This document shows positions 6,434-30,508 of a stretch of DNA of 64,000 nt, piece after piece. The stretch is from Spirochaetota bacterium. GTDB taxonomy: Bacteria; Spirochaetota; UBA4802; UBA5550. Under the pieces are notes generated by a model. It did not search any database, was not told where the DNA came from, and saw nothing but the letters and a program-made list of their open reading frames with translations. The stretch spans positions 691,440-755,439 of the forward strand of contig JAGNKX010000001.1 of assembly GCA_017999915.1 (NCBI GenBank), given 5' to 3'. Made by a program: the position numbers and the translations under genes. Position 1 is the stretch's first letter. Each line of letters starts with the position of its first letter.

Positions 6434-7042
6434 ATGGAAGATACGACTGAAAAAAAGATAAAAAATGCCGCCCTGCGCGAGTTTGCCCAACATGGTCTGG
6501 AAGGAGCCAGGGTGGACCGCATTGCCCAGAAAGCGAAAATAAACAAGGCCATGATCTATTATCATTTTAAAAGCAAGGAAGATCTGTATGAATCGATCTT
6601 GATAGAATTTTACAGTAAAATCTTTCCGCGGGTAGCAGGCAATATTTCAAAAGACAAGGGTGTTGAAGAACAGCTGGAATCCATCGTTACGTTTTTCATT
6701 GATTTCATCAAGGAAATGGATCAGGATTATATCAGGGTTATGCTCAGGGAGCTCTCCAGCGGCGGCAAGTATTTCAAAAAACTTATGCTCCCCAATGTCA
6801 TCATCCCCATGATGGGGCTAGTTCAGGAGCTTTTTACCGCAGGCATCAAGCAGGGAACATTCAAAAATATCGTCCCCCATTTAACTTTTATCCAGATGCT
6901 CGGATCAATCGTTTTTACCAACGCCATCCGCATAACCCTCTCTGATACTGATTTCGGGAAAATGATATTCAATGATGATTTCTTTGAAGAGTATAAGAAG
7001 AACATGCTGACAGTGGTAAAGACCGGGATCATGGCATCGTAA
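6434..7042 (+). CDS. TetR/AcrR family transcriptional regulator (YbiH-like).
   Basis: N-terminal HTH with the MIYYHFKSKEDLY motif. Position is immediately upstream of the efflux genes. Confidence 0.85.
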   Translation: MEDTTEKKIKNAALREFAQHGLEGARVDRIAQKAKINKAMIYYHFKSKEDLYESILIEFYSKIFPRVAGNISKDKGVEEQLESIVTFFIDFIKEMDQDYIRVMLRELSSGGKYFKKLMLPNVIIPMMGLVQELFTAGIKQGTFKNIVPHLTFIQMLGSIVFTNAIRITLSDTDFGKMIFNDDFFEEYKKNMLTVVKTGIMAS

Positions 7043-7057
7043 GGAGGAATCAGGAAT

Positions 7058-10189: not shown

Positions 10190-11337
10190 AAGCCTTTGGT
10201 TCCCTCATACGAATGATCGCGATTGCGGACAAGGAATGGATCCAGATACGGCGTGACGGCCGGAGCTTTTTCCTGGCGCTGTTCATTCCGACCCTGCTGG
10301 TGCTGCTGTTCGGCTATGCCCTGGTATTTGACGTGAAGCATGTGAAGGTCGCCGTGTATGACCAGGACCGCAGTTATGCTTCCCGACAGTACCTTGAGCG
10401 GTTCAAGCATACAGAATATATCTCGATTGAGCGGTATGTCGATAATTACAAGGATATCGACGGGCTCATAAATTCAGGCGCAATCGCGATGGCCCTGGTG
10501 ATCCCGCCCTCTTTTGAGCGAAAATTCAATTCCGGGAAGTACGCCGATATACAGGTACTGGTGGACGGGTCGGATTCCATGTCAGCCCTGATCGCCACCG
10601 GCTACGTGAAGGCCATAAGCTATGAATTTAACAGGGACTACCTGGAGAAGGCTTTGACCAAGAAAGGGCTGACATCGTTGCGGCAGCCTGTAGAGATTAA
10701 AAACAGGATATGGTATAATTCGGAGCTGAAGAGCCGCAATTTCATCATACCCGGCAACCTGGGCCTTATCCTGGCCATCATATCGGCCCTGATCACCTCC
10801 CTCACCATTTCCCGGGAATGGGAGCGGGGGACCATGGAGACACTCATAACAACGCCGGTGCGCGGACACGAAGTGGTGCTGGGGAAGCTCATCCCCTATA
10901 TTTTCATAGGCCTTTTCGATGTGGTCTTCGCCCTGGTCGTCGGCTATTTCGTTTTCAACGTGCCCTTCAGGGGAAGCTTCCTTGAGCTGATGCTCATATC
11001 CATACTGTTCCTGGTGGGGACCAGCGGCCTGGGCATACTCATTTCCTCGATAACGCGGGTGCAGGTGCTCTCGGTGCAGGTTGCCATTGTCCTTACCTAT
11101 CTGCCGTCCTTCATGCTCTCTGATTTTATATTTCCGATCAAGAACATGCCGTTGATCATCCAGGCCATCACGTACATCATTCCGGCAAAATACATGATCG
11201 TCGTGCTGAAGGGGATCATCCTGCGCGGCGTCGGGTATCCCGTGCTGATAATGCAGATAGTGTTTCTTTCAATATTCTGCATCCTGGTGCTTGCCCTGTG
11301 CATTAAAAAGTTCAGGGTCAGCCTCCCGGACAAGTGA
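10186..11337 (+). CDS. ABC-2 type transporter permease (YbhS/YbhR-like).
   Basis: 383 aa. Large periplasmic loop after TM1 and C-terminal 5-TM ABC-2 domain. GTG start overlaps the upstream stop. Confidence 0.85.
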   Translation: MKAFGSLIRMIAIADKEWIQIRRDGRSFFLALFIPTLLVLLFGYALVFDVKHVKVAVYDQDRSYASRQYLERFKHTEYISIERYVDNYKDIDGLINSGAIAMALVIPPSFERKFNSGKYADIQVLVDGSDSMSALIATGYVKAISYEFNRDYLEKALTKKGLTSLRQPVEIKNRIWYNSELKSRNFIIPGNLGLILAIISALITSLTISREWERGTMETLITTPVRGHEVVLGKLIPYIFIGLFDVVFALVVGYFVFNVPFRGSFLELMLISILFLVGTSGLGILISSITRVQVLSVQVAIVLTYLPSFMLSDFIFPIKNMPLIIQAITYIIPAKYMIVVLKGIILRGVGYPVLIMQIVFLSIFCILVLALCIKKFRVSLPDK

Positions 11338-11355
11338 CAAAGAGGCATAGGCGAC

Positions 11356-12546
11356 ATGAAAGCATTCATCAGGCCAAAAGTACTTGTAAGCATGATAAAA
11401 AAGGAATTCGCCCAGGTGCTGCGCGATATCCGGATGCGGGGCGTTGTATTCGGGCCGCCGATAATCATGATCATCGTTTTCGGTTATGCCATCAACCTTG
11501 ACGTTAATACCGTGAACCTGGCTGTCGTCGATGAGGATAAAACATCGATGAGCCGGGGATTGATTGAAAAGTTCACCGGCTCTGGGTATTTTAAGCTGCA
11601 TTCATATCTGTACTCGGACGATGAATTGATGCCCCTGATGGACCGGGGAACGGTGGAAGCGTTTATCCATTTGAGGCGTGACCTGTCAAAAAACCTTAAA
11701 ACCGGGAAGGTCTCGGAAATTCAGGTGATCATCGACGGGACTGATTCCAATAGGGGCGCGATCATCACCGCCTATGTCAACGAGATAATGCAGGGTTTTT
11801 TCATGGATGAGTACCTCGGAAGGGTCAAGGCGCAGATACTGTACCGCCTGTCGGGCCTTCCGGGCACGCAAACTGGCGAGTCTGCCGGAATGGTAATGCC
11901 CCGGGGGGTCCGCATCCTTGACAGGGCCTATTTCAATCCTACCCTCCTCAGCAAGAATTATTTTCTGCCCGGGGTCATAGGTTTCATCGTTTCCCTGATA
12001 ACGGTCATGCTGACGTCGATGTCGATCGTCAAGGAGCGGGAGTCGGGGACCATGGAGCAGATCGTCGTGTCCCCCATCAAGCCGATGGAATTCATCATGG
12101 GGAAGACGATACCTTTCGCCATCATCGGCTTTATCGACATGCTGATCGTAACGATAATAACGATTTTCTGGTTCGGCGTTCCCTTCAACGGCAGTATCGC
12201 CTTCCTGTATTTTGCGGCATTTTTCTATATCCTCTGCTCCCTCGCGGTGGGTATATTCATTTCCACGATATCAAAGACACAGCAGCAGGCGATGATGTCA
12301 TTCTTTCTGTATTTCATACCGGCGATTCTCTTTTCCGGCTTTGCCTTTCCCATCTACGCGATGCCGGAAACGATACAGTTCATCACCTACCTCAATCCGC
12401 TGATGTATTTCATGGTCATTATCCGGGGGGTGTTCCTGAAGGGTGTGGGCATAACGGTCCTGTGGAAGGAAGTGCTGATCCTCATGGTCATCGGAATTGT
12501 ACTGCTGAACCTGAGCGCCCGCAGGCTGAGCAGGAGGATGGAATAA
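11356..12546 (+). CDS. ABC-2 type transporter permease, paralog of the preceding gene.
   Basis: 396 aa with the same topology as the preceding permease. Confidence 0.85.
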   Translation: MKAFIRPKVLVSMIKKEFAQVLRDIRMRGVVFGPPIIMIIVFGYAINLDVNTVNLAVVDEDKTSMSRGLIEKFTGSGYFKLHSYLYSDDELMPLMDRGTVEAFIHLRRDLSKNLKTGKVSEIQVIIDGTDSNRGAIITAYVNEIMQGFFMDEYLGRVKAQILYRLSGLPGTQTGESAGMVMPRGVRILDRAYFNPTLLSKNYFLPGVIGFIVSLITVMLTSMSIVKERESGTMEQIVVSPIKPMEFIMGKTIPFAIIGFIDMLIVTIITIFWFGVPFNGSIAFLYFAAFFYILCSLAVGIFISTISKTQQQAMMSFFLYFIPAILFSGFAFPIYAMPETIQFITYLNPLMYFMVIIRGVFLKGVGITVLWKEVLILMVIGIVLLNLSARRLSRRME

Positions 12547-13472
12547 TGGAAAAAGTCGTTGAGATCAGGAACCTTACCAAGACATTCGGCGATTTTACCG
12601 CGGTCAATAATATCAGCCTCTCGGTGGAGAAGGGGGAAATATTCGGTTTCCTGGGCCCCAACGGCGCGGGGAAGACGACCACCATCAAGATGCTCTGCGG
12701 CATCCTGATGCCGACCTCCGGTGAGGGCCGGGTATCGGGGTTCGATATCATCGCCGAGCAGGAGAAGATCAAGACCATCATCGGGTACATGTCCCAGCGA
12801 TTCAGCCTGTATGAAGATCTCACGGTCGTGGAGAACCTGGAATTTTACGGCAGCATATACGGCCTCGAGGGGAGGAAACTGAAAGAGTCCATCGGCCGGG
12901 TGGTCGACATGGCGGGCATCGGCGACCGGAAAAATGACCTGGTGAAAAACCTGCCGGGCGGCATGAAGCAGCGCCTGGCCCTGGGCGGCGCCATACTCCA
13001 TGATCCGCCGATCCTCTTCCTCGACGAGCCCACGTCAGGAGTGGATCCCCTCATGCGGCGGAACTTCTGGGACATCATATACCGGTTTTCCGAGGAGGGG
13101 CGCACCATCTTTGTCACCACCCACTACATGGACGAGGCGGAGCACTGCAACAGGATTGCCCTGGTCATCGCGGGACAGATCATCGCCCTTGATTCGCCGG
13201 AAGCCCTGAAAAAGAATTTTGACAATGCCGTATATTCCATCGTAACGGATAACTTTCTCGAGGTATTCGAGAAAATCAGGTACCTTGACTTTATCATTGA
13301 AGCGGCCATATTCGGCACCGACATCCATATCCTGTGCGGCAAGGATGTGCCGGCGAAGAAAAAAATAGCGGCTTTTTTCAAAGAGCAGGACATCTCCTCC
13401 TATGCGATCCATCGGATAACACCAAGCCTTGAGGACGTGTTCGTGAGCAATGCCAGGAAATACGCCCTCTGA
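12546..13472 (+). CDS. ABC transporter ATP-binding protein, second ATPase of the system.
   Basis: Walker A GPNGAGKTT, signature LPGGMKQRL, Walker B LFLDEPT. I place the start at ATG 12546 (MEKVVEIRNLTK), overlapping the upstream TAA (TAATGG). The ORF-track start at 12462 would overlap the permease by 85 nt. Confidence 0.85.
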   Translation: MEKVVEIRNLTKTFGDFTAVNNISLSVEKGEIFGFLGPNGAGKTTTIKMLCGILMPTSGEGRVSGFDIIAEQEKIKTIIGYMSQRFSLYEDLTVVENLEFYGSIYGLEGRKLKESIGRVVDMAGIGDRKNDLVKNLPGGMKQRLALGGAILHDPPILFLDEPTSGVDPLMRRNFWDIIYRFSEEGRTIFVTTHYMDEAEHCNRIALVIAGQIIALDSPEALKKNFDNAVYSIVTDNFLEVFEKIRYLDFIIEAAIFGTDIHILCGKDVPAKKKIAAFFKEQDISSYAIHRITPSLEDVFVSNARKYAL

Positions 13473-13636
13473 GGCTTTGGGAAAGACTTTTCATTTTTTC
13501 CTTGAATTATGATTTAAATCATATGCTGATGGTTTCATGATCGGAAGGATGAAGCATTGGTTCGGTCGCGGAAATCTTCACCGCTGGGTTGAGCCGTTTC
13601 CGTTCCGATACGGCAATGAGAATTGATCGGAGTACT

Positions 13637-14440
13637 ATGTCCCTGGCATTTTCAAAAGATGATTTCATGTTTTTCAAGGATCTCCTGATCGAGGCCGGCA
13701 CAGCCGCGCGGAAATTACAGAAAGATACCATCACCGTCACGAGAAAATCAGACCGGTCCATTGTCACTCAGGCTGACCTCATGGTGCAGGATTTGCTGAT
13801 GAAAAGGATATCAGCGCGCCATGGCGATTACATGTTTATCATGGAAGAAAACAATTCCGGCGCCTCACCCGATATTAGCGATGATACCGTCACGGTCGTA
13901 ATCGATCCCATTGACGGCACGGCCATGTTCAGCATGCACCTTCCGGAATGGTGCGTTTCTGTGGGCATATTCAGGGGGAGAATGCCGGTTTACGGATTCG
14001 TGTATTCCCCGGGGTGCGACATGTTTTTTTACAATGACGACAACGGCGCCTACTTGAATGACCGGCCCGTGCGCGCGGACCGGACCATCTCGATCGACAA
14101 TGAAACAAATATCTTCGTTGCATCCGAGGCCGGCAGCAGGTTCGACATTCTTTTTCCCGGTAAGATCAGGAACCTTGGGTCTACGGCGCTGCACGCCTGC
14201 CTTGCCGTAGATAATGTCCGCAACAGGACCCTTGCCTTTATCGGCAAGTCCCGCCTCTGGGACTGGGCCGGCGCAATGCCCATCATCCGTAAAGCCGGCT
14301 GCATGATGAAGTATATCAGCGGAGAGGATGTCGATGTTCAAGAAGTGATCCGCAATGATTACCGGCTTCTCGATTATGTCATTGTGTACAACTCGGATGA
14401 TTTTGAATCCGTGCGGAGTATTTTCAGAAAACGACAATGA
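13637..14440 (+). CDS. Inositol monophosphatase family protein (IMPase, or 3'(2'),5'-bisphosphate nucleotidase-like).
   Basis: Motifs VVIDPIDGT and WDWAGA. The start is ambiguous between 13589 and 13637. Confidence 0.75.
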   Translation: MSLAFSKDDFMFFKDLLIEAGTAARKLQKDTITVTRKSDRSIVTQADLMVQDLLMKRISARHGDYMFIMEENNSGASPDISDDTVTVVIDPIDGTAMFSMHLPEWCVSVGIFRGRMPVYGFVYSPGCDMFFYNDDNGAYLNDRPVRADRTISIDNETNIFVASEAGSRFDILFPGKIRNLGSTALHACLAVDNVRNRTLAFIGKSRLWDWAGAMPIIRKAGCMMKYISGEDVDVQEVIRNDYRLLDYVIVYNSDDFESVRSIFRKRQ

Positions 14441-14495
14441 CATACGACCAGGATTAATGCCTGCTGATCGTAGCGCACACAAAACATTATGCGAC

Positions 14496-14528
14496 AAAAT
14501 ACCCTGCAGGATGCCGCGGGGTATTTTG
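14496..14528. terminator. Rho-independent terminator-like hairpin flanked by A- and T-tracts (AAAATACCCTGCAG-gatgcc-GCGGGGTATTTTGTT).
   Basis: 7-bp stem including one G·U pair, then TTTTGTT. Lies 56 nt after the IMPase stop. Confidence 0.55.
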
Positions 14529-14712
14529 TTATTGGCGATCGGCTTCTTATTCAAAAAAAACCAAATGAATTTTTCCTATTTATAAATTCCTGTTTCGTCC
14601 CTGAGAAAATAACTGGAAAAAGTGAAAAGTGTATATGGTCGATTAATATGTTGACATTAATATACAGCGGATTGATCCTGACCCAAGTTGAGTTTCTGTT
14701 TAGGATGAGAGT

Positions 14713-15192
14713 ATGCCACGGCCCAGAATTTTCGGTTATTTAGCTGTATTGTTCGCACTGATACTTACGGGATTTTTCATATATTCCTTGATGGCTGTGA
14801 TGAATGACAATATCAATTACAGCCATGTTGATTTGAACGCATTGAGTTCATTCACATTCTACGCCATCGCAGCCCCAATCGGATTAGTGTCTATGGTCGT
14901 CATCGGAACCGGATTCTGGATCGGCTGGACAATTCTCGCAATAAAGGTGGTGCCACCAATGCCTGAGATAGTTGAAAAAAAAGATTTTTCCAAGATCAAA
15001 GCCTTTTTCATGTGTATCATTACACTCGCTCTGGGAGTCCTTCTCATTTACGGCCTGTATATCAGGAACTTCTGGGCGCTGGCGATACCCGCAGCGGTCA
15101 TTTGCATCGTGATACTTGGCGCAGTGTTATGGGTCGGGATCGCCATCATAACAACTCGTTCAACGCTGCCTGAAGAGAAGCAACAGTCTTAA
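14713..15192 (+). CDS. Hypothetical polytopic membrane protein (about 4 TM helices).
   Basis: ORF with strongly hydrophobic segments and coding-like composition. Confidence 0.5.
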   Translation: MPRPRIFGYLAVLFALILTGFFIYSLMAVMNDNINYSHVDLNALSSFTFYAIAAPIGLVSMVVIGTGFWIGWTILAIKVVPPMPEIVEKKDFSKIKAFFMCIITLALGVLLIYGLYIRNFWALAIPAAVICIVILGAVLWVGIAIITTRSTLPEEKQQS

Positions 15193-15198
15193 TTATTC

Positions 15199-16437
15199 AT
15201 GAAGGTTTTGCTGTTATGCTACCGTGGCAGTCCCTTTTGCGGAGGCCTCGGTATTTATCTTTATTATCTGAGCCGCGAGCTGGCACGAATGGGTGTTGAA
15301 ATCGATGTTGTCGTCGGGCCGCCCTATCCGGACCCTATGGAAGAATGGGCCGCGGTTCATAAAATCGAGAACCTAAATATCTGGATGGTGAAGACGAAGA
15401 AATTCGGGTACGATCGGCTGAAGCGCGTCTACTCACTTTGGAATTTCGTCGATTATATCCTGACCCGTTTTCATATTTTTCCTGAAATGGAAACATTCAG
15501 CATCAGGGCTTTTTTCAAGATTCGCCGGCTTTTAAAGAAGCGGACCTATGACATCATCCATGATGTCAACGGCCTTGGATGGGGCCTTCTGTTCATGAAG
15601 GGTTTCGGCATACCGGTCATATCCACCATACACCACCCCCTGACACGCGACCGCGATGCCGATTTGATGATGGACAAGGATTTCTGGGGACTGGTCACGA
15701 CGGTGTTGTTCTATCCCCTGATGATGCAGCGCTTTGTCATCAATCGCCTCGACAGGATCATCACATCATCCAATGAGGGGATCGATGAACTGAAGCGGGC
15801 CTTCGGTTTGAGCAGAAAAAAGGTATCCGTCGTATATAACGGCATGGACGTGGAAAGCTTCAGGAACACCGGCGAAAAACGGGACACCAGCACCATACTC
15901 TTCGTGGGTAACACCGAGGATCATAAGAAAGGGATCCTCTTTCTGCTGGAGGCCCTTGCTGAGCTCCCCGAGGGCATAGGGCTGACCATCGTTGACGAGG
16001 GGCCGCCGCTGAAAAAGAACGCCGCTGAGCTGATACGGAAGGTCGGCGTGGAGAAGCGCGTGACCTTCACCGGCAAGGTGGACCAGAAGACGCTGGTGAG
16101 CCTTTATAGCAGGGCCGCGGTCCTGGTCATGTCGTCCCTGTACGAGGGTTTCGGTCTGCCGGCGGCCGAGGCCATGGCCTGTGAAACGCCGGTAGTCGTC
16201 ACCAGGGCCGGCGCCCTTCCGGAAGTGGTGGACACGTCATGCGGGGTCCTGGTGGAGCCCGGCAACGCGAAGGCCCTCAGGGACGCCATCATGGGCGTTC
16301 TCAAGGACGCCGATGCACGAAGGCGGATGGGCAAGAACGGAAGGAAAAGAGCCGAGGATAATTTTTCCTGGCCCGTGGCGGCGAGGAACACTCTTGAAGT
16401 ATACCGTGATGTTATCAACAAGTACAGGAGAGCATAA
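15199..16437 (+). CDS. Glycosyltransferase, family 4 (GT-B fold).
   Basis: C-terminal EGFGLPAAEAMACETPVV (the E-x7-E GT4 motif) and an N-terminal Gly-rich loop CGGLGIY. Confidence 0.85.
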   Translation: MKVLLLCYRGSPFCGGLGIYLYYLSRELARMGVEIDVVVGPPYPDPMEEWAAVHKIENLNIWMVKTKKFGYDRLKRVYSLWNFVDYILTRFHIFPEMETFSIRAFFKIRRLLKKRTYDIIHDVNGLGWGLLFMKGFGIPVISTIHHPLTRDRDADLMMDKDFWGLVTTVLFYPLMMQRFVINRLDRIITSSNEGIDELKRAFGLSRKKVSVVYNGMDVESFRNTGEKRDTSTILFVGNTEDHKKGILFLLEALAELPEGIGLTIVDEGPPLKKNAAELIRKVGVEKRVTFTGKVDQKTLVSLYSRAAVLVMSSLYEGFGLPAAEAMACETPVVVTRAGALPEVVDTSCGVLVEPGNAKALRDAIMGVLKDADARRRMGKNGRKRAEDNFSWPVAARNTLEVYRDVINKYRRA

Positions 16438-17681
16438 TGAAAATATGTCTGTTAAGCTATCGTGGTAATCCGTATTGCGGCGGACAGGGAATCTATGTCA
16501 TGTACATAGCGCGCGAGCTGGTGAAACTGGGACACGAAGTGCACGTCATTGCCGGTCCTCCCTATCCCTTTGACGAGGAAGGCGTTATCATTCACCGGGT
16601 GAGCAACCATAACTATTTCAATAAGAAAAAGGATTTCATAAAGCCCCATAAGCCCTTCGCGACCCTCCAGCCCCTGAATTTTTATGAATTCGTCGCCGCC
16701 AAGATGGGTATCTTTCCTGAAATTGAAACATTTTCCGTGCGCGCATTTTTTAAATTGAAAGAGCTTCTTAAAGAGCACAAGTATGATATCATTCACGACA
16801 ACCAGTGTCTTGGATACGGGTTCCTCCTGATCCAGAGGCTGGGAGTTCCCTTTATATCAACGATACATCATCCCCTCTCCATTGACCGCTCCACCTGGTT
16901 CGAGTATCCCTCGGATTTCAATATCAAGATGAGGCGGATCCTGTACTATCCGTTGCTGATGCAGAAATTTGTCGCGAACCGGATGAATCGGATAATAACC
17001 GTCTCTCATAACGCGGCCCTGGAAATAAACAAGGCCTTCGGGGTCAACCAGAAGAAGATCAACGTCATTTACAACGGGATGGATTCGAGCCTTTTCTATC
17101 CCGTCAAGGGCGTGCAGAAGAAGAAAAACAGCATTATTTTCGTCGGCAATGTCGAGGACAGGAAGAAAGGCGTTATTTATCTCCTGAAAGCCATGACCCT
17201 GACCAAGCACAAGGTAAGCCTTACTATCGTCGACGGCGGGGCCCCCAACCGGAGCACGGTCCCGAACCTGATCGACAAGTTCGGCCTCAACGGCCGGGTG
17301 ACCTTCACCGGAAAGATCCCCATTGACAAGCTGATACGTCTCTATTCCAGGAATGAGATAGCCGTCCTCCCGTCCCTCTACGAGGGGTTCGGTTTCCCGG
17401 CGGCCGAGGCCATGGCCTGCGAGCTTCCCGTTCTGACCACGACAGCGGGAGCCCTCCCTGAAGTGGTGGGGGAGCACATGAAGACCGGATACCTGGTGCC
17501 GCCCCGCGACGCCGAAGCCATAGCCGAGGGCATAGATTTTCTCCTGGATAACCCCGATCTCCGCAGGGAGATGGGCAAGGCTGCGCGGAAACGGGTCCTT
17601 GAAGTCTTTACCTGGGAGAACGCGGCCCATGAGCTGGTCGCCATGTACGAAGAGGTGATCAATGCTCACCGTGGACTTTGA
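16437..17681 (+). CDS. Glycosyltransferase, family 4; paralog of the preceding gene.
   Basis: Parallel motifs CGGQGIY and EGFGFPAAEAMACELPVL. Adjacent to the previous gene with no gap. Confidence 0.85.
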   Translation: MKICLLSYRGNPYCGGQGIYVMYIARELVKLGHEVHVIAGPPYPFDEEGVIIHRVSNHNYFNKKKDFIKPHKPFATLQPLNFYEFVAAKMGIFPEIETFSVRAFFKLKELLKEHKYDIIHDNQCLGYGFLLIQRLGVPFISTIHHPLSIDRSTWFEYPSDFNIKMRRILYYPLLMQKFVANRMNRIITVSHNAALEINKAFGVNQKKINVIYNGMDSSLFYPVKGVQKKKNSIIFVGNVEDRKKGVIYLLKAMTLTKHKVSLTIVDGGAPNRSTVPNLIDKFGLNGRVTFTGKIPIDKLIRLYSRNEIAVLPSLYEGFGFPAAEAMACELPVLTTTAGALPEVVGEHMKTGYLVPPRDAEAIAEGIDFLLDNPDLRREMGKAARKRVLEVFTWENAAHELVAMYEEVINAHRGL

Positions 17682-18363
17682 CAGGCTCACTGTCAGAAAG
17701 GGCGACATCGTTCTTGACGCGGGATGCGGATTCGGCCGGCATTCCCTGGAGTTTGTGTCCCGCGGCGCCACCGTGTACAGCATGGACATGGACATGGAGA
17801 GCCTCCGGAAGACCCGCTTTTCCCTGACCCAGATGAAAAAGCATGTCAAGGGCGGCGAGGTGCGCTACCTTGTCCATTCCGGTGACGCCCTGAAACTCCC
17901 CTTCAAGGACGAATCCTTCGACAGGATCATCTGTTCCGAGGTCATGGAGCATGTCAGGGATGACGACCTGGCCTGCCGGGAGCTGTCGCGCGTACTCAAG
18001 AAAAACGGCAGGATCGCCATAACCGTGCCGACTGTTTTCAGCGAGCACATGTATAATCTTCTCACCTATGAATACTATACCTCGCCGGGGGGCCATATTC
18101 GTAATTATTTTCCCGGCGACCTCGCGGCCATGATGAGGCGAAACGGCATGGAAGTGTATGCCATAGGGTTCAAGCACTCCTTCCATACCATCTGGTGGAT
18201 GATCCGGTCCGTGGTGGGGCTTCACCTGAGCGACCATCCCCTGACAAGGGCCTACCACAAGTTTCTTCACCTGGGGCTTTATTCAAACATGGTCAGGAAA
18301 GCGGAGTCCTTCTTTGATTATTTTTTCCCTAAGAGCGTGGTCATCTACGCCTGGAAAAAATAG
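17662..18363 (+). CDS. Class I SAM-dependent methyltransferase.
   Basis: SAM-binding motif VLDAGCGFGRHS and acidic loop. Overlaps the upstream GT4 by 20 nt. Confidence 0.8.
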   Translation: MLTVDFDRLTVRKGDIVLDAGCGFGRHSLEFVSRGATVYSMDMDMESLRKTRFSLTQMKKHVKGGEVRYLVHSGDALKLPFKDESFDRIICSEVMEHVRDDDLACRELSRVLKKNGRIAITVPTVFSEHMYNLLTYEYYTSPGGHIRNYFPGDLAAMMRRNGMEVYAIGFKHSFHTIWWMIRSVVGLHLSDHPLTRAYHKFLHLGLYSNMVRKAESFFDYFFPKSVVIYAWKK

Positions 18364-18479
18364 CGGCTCATCGCAGGCGCCGGACAACCAGTCAAAGGGT
18401 CTCTGTAAATAACAAAAAATAACTTGCTATGTGAATACGCTTCATCTATCTCTGTCTTAAAATTGAATTCCTCCAGACC

Positions 18480-21122
18480 ATGGTATCAATGAAACGTATC
18501 GTTGTTGCAATTATTGTCTTGATGTGCTGGACCGCGTCGGAAGGGGCCAAGCCGTACCGGGGTAGAAAGATCAACCTTTTCGGCAATTCGGCTGAGTCCC
18601 TCGCCCGGGCCGGGACGGGTGTGACATCGTCAGGGACCGAGCAGTTTTATCTGAATCCCGCCTCCATCGCCGATTCCGAGCGGATCGGGGCAAGCTTCCA
18701 GTACGGGTCCCTTCCATTGCCCACGAAATACTACGATGGCGGATTTTCCCTGGCCGTACCGACCTCATACGGCGTATTCGGGGGTTTCTTCCGATACATG
18801 AAGTTCCCCGGCAGCGCCATTGATATCAAGGAAGGCTACAGCGTGAGCGTGGGAAGCGCCCGTGACCTGACGAGGCAGCTGATGCTGGGCTTTTCCCTGA
18901 ATTTTGTATACGGGAAGAACGGCGGAAAATCGTTTTACACCGGCGGGAATCTCGGGTTCATTTATAAATTCCCCGGCACGGCAGCGCGCTACGGCTTCTG
19001 TATCCATGACCCGCGGATAGGTTTTTCTGTCAATTTCGGGTATCCCTTTGGCAGCCATCGCAGCTATGCGGATATGAATGCCATCACCCTCGGTTACAGC
19101 TTCAAGTTTTTCCATATCAAGCAGTTCTCGCTTGGATTATATAATGATTTCACGGTGCTCAATTATCGGGACTTCCCTCTTAAATTCGGCATTGAATCGG
19201 AGATCTTCAATATTCTTATCATCAGGGGGGGCTATGTGATCCCCCATGCCTATAACAGCGGAAACTTCACCACAGGATTCGGTCTGAAAATCGATACGGA
19301 GAGTTTCAAGGGCTCCCTGAATTATGCCCTCAACTTTTATCCAAACATGAAGTACACCCATTATATCGGCGTCAATTTTGAATATGGCAAACTGGACCGG
19401 GAACCTCCCGAAACGGAGATCGGGGCGGATAAAAACGATATCTCTCCCAATCATGACGGGTCGAAAGACTACGTCCTGTTCAATCTCAGCGTCTTTGACA
19501 GGAGCAGGATAAAGGGATGGAAGCTCCAGATCATGGATGCCGGATCCCAGATCATCAAGGATTATTCCATATCGGAACGGGACATCAGCGACCGGCTCTC
19601 CGCACAGGAATTTTTTAAAAGGCTTTTTAAAAAGCGTGAATCGATGGTCGTTCCCGAAAGGATTATCTGGGATGGCACCGATGTGAAAGGGAAAACCGTG
19701 CCCGACGGCAGATATGGCTATTCCTTTACGGCATGGGATGAAAAGGACAATATTGCGGCCACGAAATCAGGTTATGTCTATGTTGACAATACTCCACCCG
19801 AGGTTGTCCTGGAAAAAAGCGACGATCTGTTTTCGCCCAATAAGGATGGCAGGAAGGATATCTATACGATTGTGCAGAAAATAAAATCATCGCCCGAGGA
19901 TGAATGGTCTGCCTGTTTTAAAGATTCACAGGGGAATGTGGTCAAGAAATACAGCTGGGCAGGCAATGCCGTGCCGGCCCGTGTCGTATGGGACGGGAAG
20001 ACCGATTCAGGCGATGACGCTCCCGAGGGCCTGTACAGCTATTCCATCTCCTGCGCTGATAATGCCGGCAACAGGGCCCATGCGGACATCAACTCCATCA
20101 CGCTTACCCGTAAATATGAGATCGCCGACATCACCCTGACACCGGAGTATTTTTCTTTCGCCAAAGAGACGCCCTTGAAAATATTCCCGGCCCTGTCAAG
20201 CACGCACGGCCTCGTGGAGTGGAAAATCCTCATACAGAATGCGGGAATGAAGATTATAAAAGAAATCAGCGGGACGAATTCGATCGACAAGATGCTGACC
20301 TATGATTGCACCGACAAGGACGGGGCGCGTCTCAATGACGGCGTGTATTATGTCAGGTTCATCGCCGTGTTCAAGAGCGGCAACACGCCTGAGTCCTTTA
20401 ACAAGATGTTTACCGTGGACAGCACCCCGCCGAAGCTTTCGGTATCTCATTCGCCCTCCCTGTTTTCGCCTGACGGGGACCGTGAAAACGACCTGTTGAA
20501 GATTGAGCCATGGGCGAAAGACAGCACGGGGATTAAAAGCTGGAGGATCATCGTCTATGATTCATCCGGTGAATCCTTCAAGACATTCTCCGGCAACGGC
20601 GCCGTTCCCGGGGAGATTCTCTGGGACGGTCTCGGGGACACCCTGGACATCGTCGAATCAGCCGCTGATTACACCATCGTTCTCGAAGCCACGGACATGG
20701 CCGGGAACAGGGGGGTATCCTCTCCGGACCGTCTGGAAGTGGACGTGCTGGTCCTGGTAACCGAGCGGGGGCTGAAAATAAGAATCAGCAATATCGAATT
20801 TCCCTTCGGCAGCAATGAAATCAAGTACAAGGGAAAGGTGATCCTTGACCGGGTCTTTCAGATACTGCAGAAGTATGAGAGCTATGACGTCCTCATCGAG
20901 GGACATACCGACGACATCGGCAAGGAAGAGTACAACCTCGAGCTCTCGGAGCGAAGGGCAAAAGCGGTGAACGACTATCTTCTGGGAAGGGGTATACCTC
21001 CTGACCGGCTGAAATATGTGGGAATGGGGGAGACGGTGCCGCTCTATCCCAATGACAGCGATGAGCATCGGCGGCGCAACCGCCGTGTTGAATTCATGCT
21101 GATCAAAAGGGTCGCCGAATAA
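18480..21122 (+). CDS. OmpA-family outer membrane protein: N-terminal beta-barrel (PorP/SprF-like FYLNPA motif), tandem FlgD-Ig-like repeats, and a C-terminal OmpA/MotB peptidoglycan-binding domain.
   Basis: Signal peptide. Repeated motifs SPNHDGSKDY, FSPNKDGRKD and FSPDGDREND. C-terminal GHTDDIG...NRRVEF, typical of OmpA_C. Confidence 0.8.
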   Translation: MVSMKRIVVAIIVLMCWTASEGAKPYRGRKINLFGNSAESLARAGTGVTSSGTEQFYLNPASIADSERIGASFQYGSLPLPTKYYDGGFSLAVPTSYGVFGGFFRYMKFPGSAIDIKEGYSVSVGSARDLTRQLMLGFSLNFVYGKNGGKSFYTGGNLGFIYKFPGTAARYGFCIHDPRIGFSVNFGYPFGSHRSYADMNAITLGYSFKFFHIKQFSLGLYNDFTVLNYRDFPLKFGIESEIFNILIIRGGYVIPHAYNSGNFTTGFGLKIDTESFKGSLNYALNFYPNMKYTHYIGVNFEYGKLDREPPETEIGADKNDISPNHDGSKDYVLFNLSVFDRSRIKGWKLQIMDAGSQIIKDYSISERDISDRLSAQEFFKRLFKKRESMVVPERIIWDGTDVKGKTVPDGRYGYSFTAWDEKDNIAATKSGYVYVDNTPPEVVLEKSDDLFSPNKDGRKDIYTIVQKIKSSPEDEWSACFKDSQGNVVKKYSWAGNAVPARVVWDGKTDSGDDAPEGLYSYSISCADNAGNRAHADINSITLTRKYEIADITLTPEYFSFAKETPLKIFPALSSTHGLVEWKILIQNAGMKIIKEISGTNSIDKMLTYDCTDKDGARLNDGVYYVRFIAVFKSGNTPESFNKMFTVDSTPPKLSVSHSPSLFSPDGDRENDLLKIEPWAKDSTGIKSWRIIVYDSSGESFKTFSGNGAVPGEILWDGLGDTLDIVESAADYTIVLEATDMAGNRGVSSPDRLEVDVLVLVTERGLKIRISNIEFPFGSNEIKYKGKVILDRVFQILQKYESYDVLIEGHTDDIGKEEYNLELSERRAKAVNDYLLGRGIPPDRLKYVGMGETVPLYPNDSDEHRRRNRRVEFMLIKRVAE

Positions 21123-21904
21123 TGTACCTGGTCTTTTCCGACCTGGACGGCACGCTTCTTGATCATGACACCTATGAGTATCATGGAGCCCGGGAAGGAC
21201 TGGCCCTTTTGAAACGGCGCGCCGTTCCTCTCATCCTGGTTTCCAGTAAGACGCTGGTGGAGATGGAAACCCTGCACCATGAGTTGAATCTGGAGGGGCC
21301 CTTTATATTTGAAAACGGCGGCGGTATTGTGTGGCCCGAAGCAAGGAAAGACCCCGAATATATCGGGACGGCCGCTTCTGAGCTGAAGGAAAAGAGAACG
21401 GTCCTTGAAGCGCTCCTGGGAGAGACGGTCCTGTTCATCACGGACATGGACGTTGAAGAGATAATGAAATGTACCGGACTTTCCAGAGAAAGGGCGCTCC
21501 TGTCAAGGAAGCGATTGACATCCCTTCCCTTCCTTGTACCATCAGGAAGAAACATTTCCGGGGAAGATCTGGAGAGGATCAATGGCGATTTGATCAGGAT
21601 GGGTTTGTCGATAACAAAGGGCGGCCGGTTCTACCATTTCCTCTCGGCAAGGTCGGACAAAGGATCGGCTATAATGCGGGTTATTGATTATTACAGGGAT
21701 AGACATGTAGCCGGGATCGTGACAATCGGCATCGGGGACAACGAAAATGACGTTCCCATGTTCAGGGTCGTGGATATTCCCGTTGCGGTAAGACGAAAGG
21801 ACGGAACAATAATCGGGACTGCCATGGACAATATCAGAAAAATGAAGGGAACGGGACCGGAAGGCTTCAGTAAGGCGATCCTGTCTATCATCGGCGATAA
21901 TTGA
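21122..21904 (+). CDS. HAD-IIB hydrolase, mannosyl-/glucosyl-3-phosphoglycerate phosphatase-like (YedP/MpgP family).
   Basis: N-terminal LVFSDLDGTLLDHDTYEY and SSKT motif, closely resembling the MPGP family. The ATG overlaps the upstream TAA. Confidence 0.8.
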   Translation: MYLVFSDLDGTLLDHDTYEYHGAREGLALLKRRAVPLILVSSKTLVEMETLHHELNLEGPFIFENGGGIVWPEARKDPEYIGTAASELKEKRTVLEALLGETVLFITDMDVEEIMKCTGLSRERALLSRKRLTSLPFLVPSGRNISGEDLERINGDLIRMGLSITKGGRFYHFLSARSDKGSAIMRVIDYYRDRHVAGIVTIGIGDNENDVPMFRVVDIPVAVRRKDGTIIGTAMDNIRKMKGTGPEGFSKAILSIIGDN

Positions 21905-21990
21905 TGGTACGCGCATTTGTGACCGCATACCTGTCATGACGATGCAAAGGTAATAGTTACCCAATAATATTACGGAATAAAGGAAGATCC

Positions 21991-22449
21991 ATGAAATCTC
22001 TCATAAACGCTCTCATTGGCGTAATCACATGGGTGTTCAATGTGTTAAGGCAACTGTGCCGCAAGCTGCTTGAACATTTCATGGAGATTAACATATGCGA
22101 AAAAGCGATAGTGATCAGCACCATCATCGCCTTTGCGGCCGTGGTCGCTCCCATGGCGCGGTACCGCATATTTGATGTTTATTTTTACATCAATAACCCG
22201 ATTGCCCATTATATGGTGGGGATCGTTCTGGTCATGATCGTTACCGTATACATCCCGGGCCTTATTGCCATGGCAATTCGTGTCATCCTGAATATTCTGT
22301 ACCTGGTTGATGTTATCTACCTTCAGGCAGCTCATGAAATCAGCAAGGCGCCCTACGAAGTGACAGTGGGGTATTATTTGAATATTATCATTGCCCTGGT
22401 CTATATCGTGCTTTCGCTGGGAAGCTTTTTTCTTTTTCGTGAATCTTAG
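21991..22449 (+). CDS. Hypothetical membrane protein.
   Basis: 152 aa with 3-4 hydrophobic helices. No recognisable motifs. Confidence 0.45.
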   Translation: MKSLINALIGVITWVFNVLRQLCRKLLEHFMEINICEKAIVISTIIAFAAVVAPMARYRIFDVYFYINNPIAHYMVGIVLVMIVTVYIPGLIAMAIRVILNILYLVDVIYLQAAHEISKAPYEVTVGYYLNIIIALVYIVLSLGSFFLFRES

Positions 22450-22715
22450 TTATGAAGATATTCAATGTCTACAAGGGGCAGAACGCCGGTACCTTCTTCT
22501 TTTTACAGTTCCGTAAAATTTTTGTAACATGAAAAAAATCGACATTATCTGATAAATTAAATGGTAGATTTGATACAGTCGATCGGCATGTAGTATGGTA
22601 ACCTGGTCATTTGGTTTATTTGAAATTTTGATGTGCATCATATTCCTGAGGTTTTATGTGTCATTTTCAGGAAATCGAACACTATAAAATATTCTTATAT
22701 ATTAAGGAGAATTCC

Positions 22716-24590
22716 ATGACAAAACACAAATTTCAGACAGAGGTCAACCAGCTTCTGCATCTTATAATTCACTCTCTCTATTCGCACAAGGAGATATTCC
22801 TGCGCGAGCTCATTTCAAACGCTTCTGATGCCCTTGACCGGCTCAAATACCTGACCCTCACGGATGAGGCCTACAAGGGCATGGATTTTGAGCCCCGGAT
22901 CGACATTTATTTCGAAGATAAAAAAGAAAAGACACTGACCATAGCCGATTCCGGCATCGGGATGAGCGACCATGACCTGGAGGAGAACCTGGGCACCATC
23001 GCCCGGTCCGGGACCAGGGGGTTCGTCGAGCAGCTCACCGGGGACGCCCGCAAGGATTCCAACCTGATAGGCCAATTTGGCGTCGGATTTTATTCCTCCT
23101 TCATGGTGGCCGATAAGGTGGAGGTCATCAGCAGAAAGGCGGGTGAGGACAAGGCGTACAAGTGGACCAGCGACGGGAAAGGCGAATATGATATCCAGGA
23201 CGCGGAACGGGAAACCCAGGGAACGTCCGTCACCCTCTACCTGAACAAGGAAGGGGAGGAATACGCCAGCCGGTATCAGATAGACACGGTCATTAAGAAA
23301 TATTCAAACCACATACCCTTCCCGATATTTCTGCACTATGAAAGCACGCGGTACGAAGGGGAAGACGACAAGAAAAAGGAAATAAAGGAGCCGAAGACCG
23401 ACCAGATCAACGCGGCGTCGGCCCTATGGAAAAGGCCCAAGTCGGAGCTCAAGGACGACGATTACAACGAGTTTTACAAATCCATTTCCCACGACATGGA
23501 CGAGCCGCTGCTTCGGATCCATACCCACGCAGAGGGAAAACTCGATTACACGACCCTGTTCTTCATACCGAAACACGCCCCCTTCGATCTCTTCAGGGCC
23601 GACTACCAGGCGGGAATTAAACTGTATGTGAAACGGGTATTCATCACCGACGATGACAAGGAGCTGATGCCGGTGTACCTCCGCTTCGTCCGGGGGGTGA
23701 TCGATTCGGAGGACCTGCCGCTGAACGTCAGCAGGGAGATCCTCCAGCAGAACCGCGTGCTGGCGAAGATAAAGACCTCGTCGGTGAAGCGGATCCTGGA
23801 TGAGCTGTCGAAGCTCCAGAAAAGCGATCGGGAAAAATACAATGAGTTCTACAGGGAATTCGGCATACCCGTCAAGGAAGGCCTCTACCAGGACATGGAA
23901 AACCGTGAAAAAATCCTGGAGCTGGTGATGTACAAGTCCACCTCGGTAGATGGGTACACGACCCTCGATGAGTACAAGGACCGGATGAAGCCGGACCAGG
24001 ACGCCATCTACTATATTACCGGCGCCAAGGAGGGGAACCTGAGAAATTCACCGCTCCTGGAAATGTATAAGAACAAGGACATAGAAGTGCTCGTCATGGA
24101 TGACGAGGTCGATGATATCATCATTGCCTCTGTGCCGAAATTCAAGGACATAAACCTCAAATCGGTGAACCGGAGCGACGCGGCCGAAAGCCTGAAGAGC
24201 GAGGAGGACAAGCAAAAAGAGAAGGAGATAGAGCCGCTCATCAAGAAGATCAAGGACGTCTTGGGAGAGGAGGTCAAGGACGTGAAGGCGAGCACGCGCC
24301 TCAGCGATTCCCCGTCCTGCATCGTGGCTGATGAAAGCGACCCGACCGTGCAGATGCAGCACCTGCTCAAGGCCATGGGGCAGAAGAACATGCCAGATTT
24401 CAAGCCGATACTGGAGATCAACCCGGAGCATGAGATAATAAAGAAGCTGGAAACCGCTGATGATAAGGCCGTCGTCGAGGACATCAGCCATCTCCTCCTC
24501 GAACAGGCCCTTCTCATCGAGGGGGTTGAATTGAAAAGCCCCAGCGAGTTCGTGAAGCGGCTGAACCGCGTCATGGGCAAGGCGCTATAA
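22716..24590 (+). CDS. htpG: Molecular chaperone HtpG (Hsp90).
   Basis: HKEIFLRELISNASDALDK-type N-terminal ATPase motif and about 625 aa. I place the start at ATG 22716, preceded by AAGGAGAA. The ORF-track start at 22656 lacks an RBS. Confidence 0.92.
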   Translation: MTKHKFQTEVNQLLHLIIHSLYSHKEIFLRELISNASDALDRLKYLTLTDEAYKGMDFEPRIDIYFEDKKEKTLTIADSGIGMSDHDLEENLGTIARSGTRGFVEQLTGDARKDSNLIGQFGVGFYSSFMVADKVEVISRKAGEDKAYKWTSDGKGEYDIQDAERETQGTSVTLYLNKEGEEYASRYQIDTVIKKYSNHIPFPIFLHYESTRYEGEDDKKKEIKEPKTDQINAASALWKRPKSELKDDDYNEFYKSISHDMDEPLLRIHTHAEGKLDYTTLFFIPKHAPFDLFRADYQAGIKLYVKRVFITDDDKELMPVYLRFVRGVIDSEDLPLNVSREILQQNRVLAKIKTSSVKRILDELSKLQKSDREKYNEFYREFGIPVKEGLYQDMENREKILELVMYKSTSVDGYTTLDEYKDRMKPDQDAIYYITGAKEGNLRNSPLLEMYKNKDIEVLVMDDEVDDIIIASVPKFKDINLKSVNRSDAAESLKSEEDKQKEKEIEPLIKKIKDVLGEEVKDVKASTRLSDSPSCIVADESDPTVQMQHLLKAMGQKNMPDFKPILEINPEHEIIKKLETADDKAVVEDISHLLLEQALLIEGVELKSPSEFVKRLNRVMGKAL

Positions 24591-30485: not shown

Positions 30486-30508
30486 TGACCGGACCAAGGA
30501 GAAAAGCC

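Follow-up and report, generated by a model that had tools for sequence, protein, structure and literature searches.

A spirochaetal gene interval with a module related to the mycobacterial ManT–MeT3 core and an adjoining OmpA–phosphatase unit

The interval described here lies in a 64-kb stretch of DNA (64,000 nucleotides, hereafter the window) and probably consists of two adjacent, separable units: a glycosyltransferase (GT) module, TM159–GT4a–GT4b–MT (14713–18363), homologous to the ManT–MeT3 core of the MMP (3-O-methylmannose polysaccharide) pathway, and a second unit, OmpA880–HAD–TM152 (18480–22449). Among characterised proteins, those closest in sequence to the GT module are ManT and MeT3, mycobacterial enzymes of the methylmannose-polysaccharide pathway, which belong to a cluster of ManT, pMeT3, MmpH and MeT1 (PMC9883506). 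On balance we favour an MMP-like module with a membrane-linked architecture that is new; for it we infer the donor sugar, the linkage, the position of methylation, the product and its cellular location, as well as what GT4a and TM159 do. A module of the ManT/MeT3 type was not found described beyond the Actinobacteria in the literature searched.

Genes of the interval

ORF calling across the window recovered the five ORFs of an earlier sequence-only reading at exactly the same coordinates, all on the + strand, with the gene overlaps that it gave (1 nt for GT4a/GT4b, 20 nt for GT4b/MT and 1 nt for OmpA880/HAD). The gap between MT and OmpA880 is 116 nt in the window. That reading had missed two flanking genes, TM159, which ends 6 nt upstream of GT4a, and TM152, which travels with HAD. 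Databases contain identical proteins from MAGs labelled 'Spirochaetes bacterium', so the window genes are real and not chance ORFs. The host is an uncultured member of the Spirochaetota. The genes are as follows.

TM159, 14713..15192, + strand: 159 aa, membrane protein with four predicted helices; opens the conserved module
GT4a, 15199..16437, + strand: 412 aa, retaining GT-B glycosyltransferase of the ManT-like GT4 subfamily
GT4b, 16437..17681, + strand: 414 aa, ManT-like GT4
MT, 17662..18363, + strand: 233 aa, class I SAM-dependent methyltransferase of the pMeT3 (putative MMP 3-O-methyltransferase) family
OmpA880, 18480..21122, + strand: 880 aa, secreted OmpA-family protein, Lsa66-like
HAD, 21122..21904, + strand: 260 aa, HAD-IIB phosphatase of the mannosyl-3-phosphoglycerate phosphatase (MPGP) family
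TM152, 21991..22449, + strand: 152 aa, hydrophobic membrane protein without family assignment

Relationship of the GT module to ManT and pMeT3

Both GTs matched the Pfam families Glycos_transf_1 and Glyco_transf_4 (E values of 1e-26 to 1e-40) and are paralogues with 47% identity across 413 aa, in agreement with the tandem GT4 pair first proposed. The top solved relative of each was M. hassiacum ManT (7QSG), the α-(1→4)-mannosyltransferase of the MMP pathway (PMC9883506), at 222 bits and 34% identity over the full length for GT4a, and at 255 bits and 36% identity over residues 1–408 for GT4b. The next solved proteins scored ~107–110 bits, MshA 73–90 bits and PimA ~52 bits. A GT4a family profile matched ManT over residues 1–408 with 260 bits, whereas the second-best match (137 bits) covered the C-terminal half alone; all non-ManT matches of at least 85 bits aligned solely to the C-terminal, nucleotide-sugar domain, and the N-terminal acceptor domain aligned with ManT alone. 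GT4a and GT4b thus both belong to the ManT family across the acceptor and donor domains. Sucrose-phosphate synthase (SPS)-type GT4s were the second-best solved matches, over the C-terminal domain only, and the SPS, MshA and BshA family models all scored the window GTs far under their cutoffs.

In a MAFFT alignment, the equivalents of ManT G15, K240, E313 and E321 were kept in both GT4a and GT4b; the last three are essential in ManT by mutagenesis (PMC9883506). ManT D293, the aspartate proposed as a guanine contact, was not conserved in register in either protein, and therefore a different nucleotide sugar could serve as donor. The two paralogues are not equivalent in their relationships. GT4b grouped with ManT and other non-spirochaete family members in an NJ tree, showed consistently higher identity to its orthologues than GT4a to its own, and shares 45–47% identity with the lone ManT-like GT of each of four loci (L168, L169, L170 and L171). 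GT4a formed its own clade on a longer, separate stem and is the more divergent, spirochaete-specific paralogue, tightly coupled to TM159; it is the sole GT retained in L066, L070 and L081.

MT matched Methyltransf_11 (2e-21), upholding its assignment as a class I methyltransferase, and is 41% identical to M. hassiacum pMeT3 over 232 of 233 aa (E 1e-59). The two proteins share an MLTVD[FY]DRL start, and each gene overlaps the 3′ end of the upstream GT gene, which in M. hassiacum is manT; a pMeT3-family methyltransferase therefore adjoins a GT in both. A search of 1.84 billion representatives returned just 46 matches to MT at E≤1e-30, and its best 150 matches included the actinobacterial pMeT3 group, ManT–MT fusions and MT–MmpH fusions. 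The analogy with mycobacterial methylated oligosaccharides drawn in the sequence-only reading fits the GT and MT part of the interval well, since no other characterised GT4 comes nearly as close as ManT, and MT is homologous over its full length to pMeT3, itself a putative 3-O-methyltransferase (PMC9883506).

In 80 related loci, compared over 10 kb on either side of GT4a, the module was nearly invariant. TM159, the most faithful partner of the GTs, lay upstream of GT4a in 72 of 72 loci with enough sequence; GT4b was present in 68 of 71 and MT in 66 of 69. TM159 had no Pfam or NCBIfam family match and no BLAST similarity to TM152. It is an internal duplication of a 2-TM hairpin, its N and C halves aligning with each other, and its AF2 model has four helices (pLDDT 76.6) and gave no Foldseek match in the PDB. 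A cytoplasmic tail, TTR[ST]TLP, is invariant. TM159 has 321 relatives, and among the 120 listed the names that bear a taxon were all Spirochaetes or Spirochaetota MAGs, bar one 'Chrysiogenales' and one unassigned 'bacterium'. Homologues precede a ManT-like GT and an MT in two non-spirochaete metagenomic contigs, one of 167 aa (L171, E 1e-13) and one of half size, 87 aa (L168). A GT4–GT4–MT cluster is also present in an Asgard archaeon (L169). The GT of L170 is 45% identical to GT4b and 44% to ManT and has MT, an MmpH-like gene (42%) and a MeT1-like gene downstream; L170 thereby links the spirochaete-type and MMP-type loci.

In the mechanism that we propose, GT4b would be the chain-elongating enzyme, extending an α-linked oligosaccharide at its non-reducing end by a hexose (mannose, with GDP-mannose as donor, being the most likely), and MT would O-methylate the added residues using SAM; together they would give a methylated manno-oligosaccharide or polysaccharide. 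GT4a, translationally coupled to TM159, may perform the priming or initiating step, or form a second linkage, on the cytoplasmic side of the inner membrane, and TM159 may act in this priming route, a role suggested by gene coupling alone. Priming by GT4a and TM159 would replace the primer recycling and 1-O-capping of the actinobacterial MmpH/MeT1 system; tblastn with the M. hassiacum MmpH endomannosidase (E<1e-3) and with the MeT1 1-O-methyltransferase (Methyltransf_24 type) gave no match in the 64-kb window and 80–85 spirochaete loci.

A wider reading, possible but rather doubtful at present, is that polymethylated MMP-like mannans are not confined to actinobacteria, and that a second, membrane-linked route occurs in Spirochaetota and two other bacterial lineages, with a related form in Asgard archaea. 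The duplicated 2-TM protein and the ManT paralogue GT4a would there give de novo initiation instead of MmpH/MeT1 recycling, and in the boldest version the invariant tail of the TM protein would be the glycosylation primer and the polymer would be protein-anchored. If true, GT4a and the small TM protein would supply de novo initiation, a step still unexplained in mycobacteria.

Separability of the two units and alternative readings

OmpA880 has an N-terminal domain of ~310 aa, Ig-like/FlgD_ig repeats and a C-terminal peptidoglycan-binding OmpA domain (residues 774–868, 4.6e-23, 81.9 bits against a cutoff of 27.2), with CHU_C as a further Pfam match, and so is the multidomain OmpA protein originally described. 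HAD falls within the MPGP family, as the check suggested by the sequence-only reading showed (202 bits with TIGR01486, cutoff 164.75). It scored under the cutoff of every equivalog-level MPGP/YedP or bifunctional MPGS/MPGP model in NCBIfam, the best being NF001216 (179 bits, cutoff 353), followed by TIGR02463 (172, cutoff 282) and TIGR02461 (149, cutoff 244). Its scores with T. thermophilus MpgP (3ZTW) and E. coli YedP (1XVI) were 108 and 98 bits respectively. The HAD motifs (DxD, S/T, K and GDxxND) are represented by D7, D9, S41–T44, K180, D206, N209 and D210, all invariant in 10 orthologues, and the MPGP-family motif GGRF[YF]H is kept. TM152 had a sub-threshold, meaningless match in Pfam and none in NCBIfam.

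Wherever HAD was present it directly followed an OmpA880-like gene, and TM152 followed HAD in all such loci that extend far enough. The unit OmpA880–HAD–TM152, with OmpA880 first, occurs in L088–L092, in L092 without the GT module; conversely, most spirochaete loci and the non-spirochaete versions have the GT module but not the unit, neither HAD nor OmpA880 being found near the modules of L168–L172 or L086. OmpA880 adjoined the GT module in 16 of 53 loci. HAD lay within reach of it in 12 of 53 informative loci, all from two clades, and was not found within 10 kb downstream in the other 41, a range in which a HAD gene farther off in the same genome would be missed. L072 retains OmpA880–TM152 beside the GT module and has lost HAD. 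Thus conservation of the gene order holds strongly for GT4–GT4–MT and fails for HAD. The units being separable both ways, the assignment of all five genes to one pathway is not supported, nor is the view of OmpA880 as inserted into that pathway; OmpA880 heads a unit of its own. The gap between MT and OmpA880 shrinks to 11–19 nt in three loci, and therefore both units may be one transcript in those lineages. We regard OmpA880–HAD–TM152 as a putative separate, envelope-associated operon and not a step of the GT module. HAD is probably an active phosphatase of the glycosyl-phosphoglycerate type, with a substrate that would be made elsewhere, and it would adjoin the GT module through shared ancestry in two clades.

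The same genes can be read as a single pathway, in which one GT4 (e.g. GT4a) glycosylates 3-phosphoglycerate, HAD dephosphorylates the product, the second GT4 extends it and MT methylates it, giving a methylated glycosylglycerate or a glycerate-primed polymer like MGLP (6-O-methylglucose lipopolysaccharide), the OmpA gene being a passenger. HAD is indeed a genuine member of the MPGP family and its catalytic motifs are intact; it is co-oriented with MT and less than 3 kb from it in the window and in the 12 related loci; the shortest MT–OmpA880 gaps and the need for another primer where MmpH and MeT1 are absent point the same way. Mycobacterial MGLP is primed on glucosylglycerate, the synthesis of which includes a phosphatase step. 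To our knowledge, however, no GT4 enzyme uses 3-phosphoglycerate as acceptor, and the distribution of HAD, its constant coupling to OmpA880 and TM152, its loss in L072 between two retained units and its absence from the TM-type modules L168 and L171 and from the archaeal cluster argue against a shared pathway. Furthermore, more distant HAD homologues, at 31–41% identity, adjoin GpgS-like, MGS-like GT2 and glycerate 2-kinase genes, whereas no GpgS, MpgS, MGS-like or glycerate-kinase gene was matched in the 64-kb window or the 80 spirochaete loci. We consider this pathway distinctly improbable. The more distant HAD homologues just named lie in clusters of the GpgS/glycerate-kinase/MscS type. These clusters, together with the SPS-type matches of the GT C-terminal domains, are what speaks for a compatible solute of the sucrose, mannosylglycerate or mannosylglucosylglycerate type, whose phosphorylated disaccharide or glycoside precursor a GT4 would make and from which HAD would free the solute. 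That reading is barely credible given the sub-cutoff SPS, MshA and BshA scores, the acceptor domain shared with ManT alone, the want of conservation of HAD with the GTs and the absence of a GT55-, GT78- or GT81-type synthase nearby; solute pathways also do not feature a methyltransferase of their own together with a membrane protein.

An envelope role for the GT module is unlikely as well, if less so. The module would then build or decorate a surface or cell-wall methyl-mannose polysaccharide or glycolipid, with TM159 as anchor or translocation helper, comparable with methyl-capped polymannan O-antigens or the 4-O-methylmannose polysaccharide reported from the Leptospira cell wall (Yanagihara 1983, as cited in PMC4729496). 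The most constant partner of the GTs is indeed an integral membrane protein, and in the window's clade the module has an ABC-2/TolC/HlyD efflux set on one side and an outer-membrane protein on the other. Yet these efflux genes are clade-specific and, from their domain matches, resemble multidrug-type MFP/ABC-2 pumps and not polysaccharide exporters. The flanks are otherwise housekeeping genes that vary by clade (e.g. pth, STAS and polA), and no flippase, polymerase, Wzm/Wzt-type exporter, polyprenyl-phosphate GT or sugar-nucleotide gene was conserved with the module among the loci compared. The polymer made by the sole characterised relatives, ManT and the MMP cluster, is cytoplasmic (PMC9883506).

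Comparison with known systems

The GT module resembles the MMP cluster in its ManT-like GT4, homologous over its full length with acceptor domain and catalytic residues included, in the pMeT3-family methyltransferase directly downstream and overlapping the GT gene, and in being compact and without conserved export genes. It differs in having two paralogous ManT-like GTs rather than one and a dedicated four-helix protein, TM159, with no counterpart in the MMP-type loci examined; its host belongs to a Spirochaetota lineage and not to the Actinobacteria, and its proteins, known here from sequence, are just 34–41% identical to their mycobacterial relatives. MGLP, the logic behind the glycerate model, is likewise polymethylated and made by GT4-type α-1,4 glycosyltransferases and SAM methyltransferases, whereas the window has no GpgS in its 64 kb and the HAD gene is not conserved with GT modules of its type. 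ManT, as distinct from the window GTs, is 28–33% identical to the MGLP/glycogen GTs Rv3032 and Rv1212c (PMC9883506).

With MPGP/GpgP-type HAD-IIB phosphatases, the window HAD shares the TIGR01486 assignment and all HAD motifs; it fails the equivalog models, and the genes conserved beside it encode an OmpA-family protein and a small membrane protein where its relatives at 31–41% identity have a GpgS/MpgS synthase, MGS-like GT2 or glycerate kinase. The polymannan O-antigens of E. coli O8/O9a are made by the GT4 mannosyltransferases WbdA/B/C, capped by the methyltransferase WbdD and exported by Wzm/Wzt. Here too, GT4 mannosyltransferases work alongside a SAM methyltransferase that acts on mannose on the cytoplasmic side of the membrane. 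However, no WbdD-like kinase/coiled-coil, Wzm/Wzt-type exporter or polyprenyl-phosphate-priming GT is conserved with the window module, whose sequence affinity is with ManT and pMeT3. Finally, residues 314–874 of OmpA880 align with the whole model of the Leptospira Lsa66-type OmpA-like adhesins (NF053608), Ig-like repeats and C-terminal OmpA domain included, although the score of 268 bits is far under the 700-bit cutoff; OmpA880 differs from these adhesins in its extra N-terminal domain of ~310 aa and in its translational coupling to a cytoplasmic phosphatase.

Gene layout and conservation of the two units

The genes fell into two neighbouring units, the module TM159-GT4a-GT4b-MT (unit 1, 14713-18363) and OmpA880-HAD-TM152 (unit 2, 18480-22449), with the following features:

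14713-15192, + strand: TM159, a 159-aa four-helix membrane protein with its stop 6 nt ahead of GT4a, overlooked in the sequence-only reading
15199-16437, + strand: GT4a, a GT4 glycosyltransferase (Pfam and NCBIfam domains)
16437-17681, + strand: GT4b, a GT4 glycosyltransferase (Pfam and NCBIfam domains)
17662-18363, + strand: MT, a methyltransferase (Pfam and NCBIfam domains)
18480-21122, + strand: OmpA880, an 880-aa OmpA-family protein (Pfam and NCBIfam domains)
21122-21904, + strand: HAD, a 260-aa HAD-IIB phosphatase above the TIGR01486 cutoff
21991-22449: TM152, a 152-aa membrane protein 3' of HAD, likewise overlooked

The five ORFs of the sequence-only reading proved exact in their coordinates, all on the + strand and overlapping as it had stated, by 1 nt (GT4a/GT4b), 20 nt (GT4b/MT) and 1 nt (OmpA880/HAD), and its domain assignments were borne out by Pfam and NCBIfam. 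MT and OmpA880 were separated by 116 nt, and a promoter and terminator scan of 14300-22800 revealed nothing useful within this gap. GT4a and GT4b were paralogues with 47% identity. The proposed grouping of HAD with the mannosyl-3-phosphoglycerate phosphatase (MPGP) family held, as it scored 202 bits against TIGR01486 (curated cutoff 164.75); it was below cutoff in all equivalog-level NCBIfam models. Identical proteins were recorded in uncultured 'Spirochaetes bacterium' MAGs.

The GT4a family profile was then scanned against one genome per species, and the best 80 of 218 matches (79 MAGs and one single-cell genome) were examined over 10 kb either side of GT4a, using tblastn and ORF clustering and counting partners only over loci with enough flank. 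The titles of these best 80 loci were mostly Spirochaetota or Leptospirales, with a minority of Syntrophomonadaceae (n=5), Bacillota (n=1), 'uncultured bacterium' (n=1) and 'metagenome' (n=1). Among the same best 80 of 218, TM159 accompanied GT4a in 72/72 loci, GT4b in 68/71 and MT in 66/69; the corresponding values for unit 2 were 16/53 for OmpA880 and 12/53 for HAD. In the GT4a tree, OmpA880/HAD adjacency was confined to two clades and missing from the two large remaining ones; one further adjacency-positive locus (L084) had been left out of the tree by the coverage filter. The earlier interpretation of a single five-gene cluster is partly supported: GT4-GT4-MT is conserved and akin to the mycobacterial polymethylated-polysaccharide genes, but OmpA880 and HAD are separable from it.

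Where present, HAD was always directly 3' of OmpA880, with a spacing of at most 20 nt in most loci, and TM152 came next in every locus reaching that far. One locus (L072) carried OmpA880-TM152 beside the module with HAD missing, and another (L092) a spirochaete-type OmpA880-HAD unit with no GT module within 10 kb. Scanning metagenomes with a HAD profile recovered just five loci of the spirochaete type, at 42-65% identity and L092 among them, each with the order OmpA880-HAD(-TM152). Most of the remaining ~70 relatives (31-41% identity) had as neighbours a GpgS-like synthase, an MGS-like GT2, a glycerate 2-kinase and an MscS-like fragment, which marks these loci as classical clusters for glycosylglycerate solutes; neither the 64-kb window nor the spirochaete loci contained any of these four gene types. 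From this partner distribution we take HAD to be a divergent member of the MPGP family whose conserved association here is with envelope proteins, not with GTs. Over the 10 kb either side of GT4a, OmpA880 and HAD form a neighbouring unit separable from the GT module. Judged by its sequence, HAD is apparently an active MPGP-type phosphatase, yet a glycosylglycerate-pathway annotation is unwarranted, the conserved coupling being with an OmpA-family envelope protein.

In unit 2 itself (window 18480-22449; L088-L092, L045, L073 and L084), the OmpA-family outer-membrane protein shows conserved translational coupling with a cytoplasmic phosphatase of the MPGP type and the 152-aa membrane protein. 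The unit was usually followed by a 333-aa ORF without family match on the opposite strand and then htpG, an arrangement also seen in L072 minus HAD. Separately, a ~740-aa ORF in one related locus (L132:9989-12220) combined an MPGP-family HAD with a glycerate 2-kinase of the DUF4147/MOFRL type, which would join glycosyl-phosphoglycerate dephosphorylation and glycerate phosphorylation in one protein.

Relationship of the GT4s and MT to ManT and pMeT3

Compared with characterised enzymes, as had been suggested from the sequence, both GT4s were closest to ManT among solved GT4s. In a PDB sequence search, 7QSG was matched full length by GT4a (222 bits) and GT4b (255 bits), the next solved GT4s scoring ~107-110 bits, MshA 73-90 and PimA ~52. 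The GT4a family profile matched 7QSG with 260 bits (residues 1-408), and its remaining PDB matches of at least 85 bits aligned over the C-terminal nucleotide-sugar domain alone. This structure is ManT of M. hassiacum, an alpha-(1->4)-mannosyltransferase responsible for elongating 3-O-methylmannose polysaccharide (MMP) (PMC9883506). Residues K240, E313 and E321, shown by mutagenesis to be essential in ManT, and the Gly-loop G15 are kept in both GT4a and GT4b. No in-register equivalent of ManT D293, the proposed guanine reader, was found in either, so the donor sugar is putative. In the NJ tree, GT4b was placed amid ManT and other non-spirochaete family members, and GT4a formed a separate clade on a longer stem. 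A defence-system reading via PF20706 ('GT4 in conflict systems') was rejected, the 47-59 bits being generic GT4 cross-matches.

In M. hassiacum the gene order is manT, pmeT3 (overlapping manT), mmpH and meT1. MT showed 41% identity to pMeT3, a putative enzyme (PMC9883506), across 232/233 residues (E 1e-59), and the two have in common the start MLTVD[FY]DRL and an overlap with the upstream GT gene; identities to the characterised enzymes were 34-41% overall. Neither the window nor 85 spirochaete loci yielded a homologue of MmpH or MeT1. Among 1.84 billion representative proteins, MT had only 46 matches at E<=1e-30. Its best 150 matches included the actinobacterial pMeT3 group, one ManT-MT fusion and two MT-MmpH fusions, which connects MT of the spirochaetes with the MMP system. 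The fusions in this representative library (P0468, P0377 and P0413) are a ManT-like GT with a pMeT3-like MT (530 aa) and a pMeT3-like MT with an MmpH-like hydrolase (590 and 606 aa).

TM159 and the module in other genomes

TM159 consists of a 2-TM hairpin that has been duplicated internally. The loop between helices 2 and 3, KVVPPMPEIVEKKD.SKIKAF, was almost invariant and the tail TTR[ST]TLP (residues 147-153) invariant, and both are predicted by the positive-inside rule to be cytoplasmic. Foldseek comparison of its AF2 model (pLDDT 76.6) with the PDB gave nothing below E = 3.8, and no solved fold was matched. The JGI label 'PQ loop repeat' was discarded, there being no Pfam match behind it.

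Genomic context was examined for five representatives (L168-L172), revealing three architectures. Two loci, L172 (Acidimicrobiaceae) and L170, were of the MMP type, ManT-MeT3-MmpH-MeT1, the L170 GT being 45% identical to GT4b and 44% to ManT. Two were of a TM type. In L171, a 167-aa TM159 homologue (L171:3660-4163; E 1e-13), in which the tail motif recurs as KQTTLP, preceded a GT (47% to GT4b) and an MT; this MT shared a 90% cluster with one partial protein bearing a Deltaproteobacteria MAG name. In L168, a half-size 87-aa TM homologue with a Pro/Ser/Thr-rich end was followed by a b-like GT, MT and an a-like GT. The C-terminal motif of TM159 could be a docking or glycosylation site. The archaeal locus (L169:5511-12009; Candidatus Jordarchaeales, an Asgard archaeon) encoded a GT4, a ManT-like GT4 (46% to GT4b) and a pMeT3-like MT, and went on with a B12-binding radical SAM enzyme and another two methyltransferases of class I; it is an archaeal relative of the module and would methylate heavily. 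TM159 was absent from the MMP-type and archaeal loci.

Three loci titled Syntrophomonadaceae (L066, L070 and L081) contained TM159 and a single GT4a-type GT but lacked GT4b and MT, the genes beyond the GT being convergent and unrelated; in L071 (titled Syntrophomonadaceae) and L083 (titled Bacillota) the sequence ended within or just past the GT4a-type GT that follows TM159. The titles of these five look inconsistent, since their proteins are ~60% identical to spirochaete proteins.

One large spirochaete clade had co-oriented extra genes at both module ends. In its locus L018, a Zn-dependent alcohol-dehydrogenase-like gene lay directly 5' of TM159 (L018:8534-9508; also in 21 other loci) and a 316-aa Methyltransf_2-type O-methyltransferase with a dimerisation domain directly 3' of MT (L018:13260-14210; also in 14 others). 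Both genes could provide accessory steps particular to this clade.

Upstream of the module in the window's clade (6434-13472) were genes for a TolC-like OEP, an HlyD-like adaptor, two ABC ATPases and two ABC-2 permeases. Homologues of a 202-aa ORF, the OEP and the adaptor were downstream of the module in three other loci (L027, L029 and L038), and the proximity is probably regional synteny, not functional linkage. A core role as product exporter was rejected for these efflux genes, which are clade-specific and, judged from their domain matches, multidrug-type, as was a core role as module phosphatase for the upstream IMPase-family gene (13589-14440), found with the module in 15/80 loci (best 80 of 218). 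Further upstream (26-5632), a bacterial alpha-2-macroglobulin gene (1072 aa) preceded a penicillin-binding-protein-like gene, a known pairing that looks ordinary. Assigned by correspondence with annotated genes of a related locus (L001), a GntR/FCD regulator (28190-28993) and thiolase and FadB-type (ECH/3HCDH) beta-oxidation genes (29178-32632) lay ~8 kb downstream of the module. The latter deserve a brief mention in that acyl-CoA binding is ascribed to MMP; no conserved linkage with the module was seen. At 62001-64000 the GC content was 0.40, compared with ~0.52 for the window, with a GC skew of +0.21.

Proposed function and comparison with the mycobacterial system

On the homologies of its enzymes, unit 1 most likely makes an O-methylated oligomer or polymer of an alpha-hexose, probably mannose. 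GT4b would elongate the chain, as ManT does, and MT would methylate the newly added residues, as proposed for MeT3. GT4a and TM159 would supply the start of new chains at the cytoplasmic face of the membrane, replacing what the actinobacterial system gets from MmpH and MeT1. How an MMP chain starts is still a puzzle because ManT is unable to extend mono- or dimannosides (PMC9883506). The module, which has no recycling enzymes but does have an extra GT paralogue and a membrane protein of its own, is a candidate de novo initiation system.

A single pathway of all five genes, HAD included, would account for the recurrence of HAD adjacency in two clades and for MT-OmpA880 gaps of merely 11-19 nt in three loci, and the system does need a primer; however, the presence of HAD in only 12/53 loci, over 10 kb either side of GT4a, weakens this reading, which we regard as improbable. 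It is also rather unlikely that the module makes or decorates an envelope glycan, as genes for export or polymerisation are not among its conserved neighbours, although the GTs have a membrane-protein partner and 4-O-methylmannose was described in a Leptospira cell-wall polysaccharide in an old report, as cited in PMC4729496. A compatible-solute pathway has essentially no support.

Polymethylated polysaccharides, namely MMP and 6-O-methylglucose lipopolysaccharide, are viewed as characteristic of mycobacteria and a small number of related bacteria, in which they are thought to chaperone fatty acyl-CoAs. A literature search of incomplete coverage linking methylmannose polysaccharide or MMP genes with spirochaetes found nothing. 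A ManT/MeT3-type module conserved across a whole uncultured Spirochaetota lineage, with kin in two bacterial contigs and an Asgard archaeon, would considerably broaden the known distribution of this chemistry. We read GT4-GT4-MT with TM159 as a new, membrane-linked form of the polymethylated-polysaccharide system of the ManT/MeT3 kind, lying outside Actinobacteria and differing from the mycobacterial MMP cluster in that it lacks MmpH and MeT1 and has instead an additional GT paralogue and TM159.
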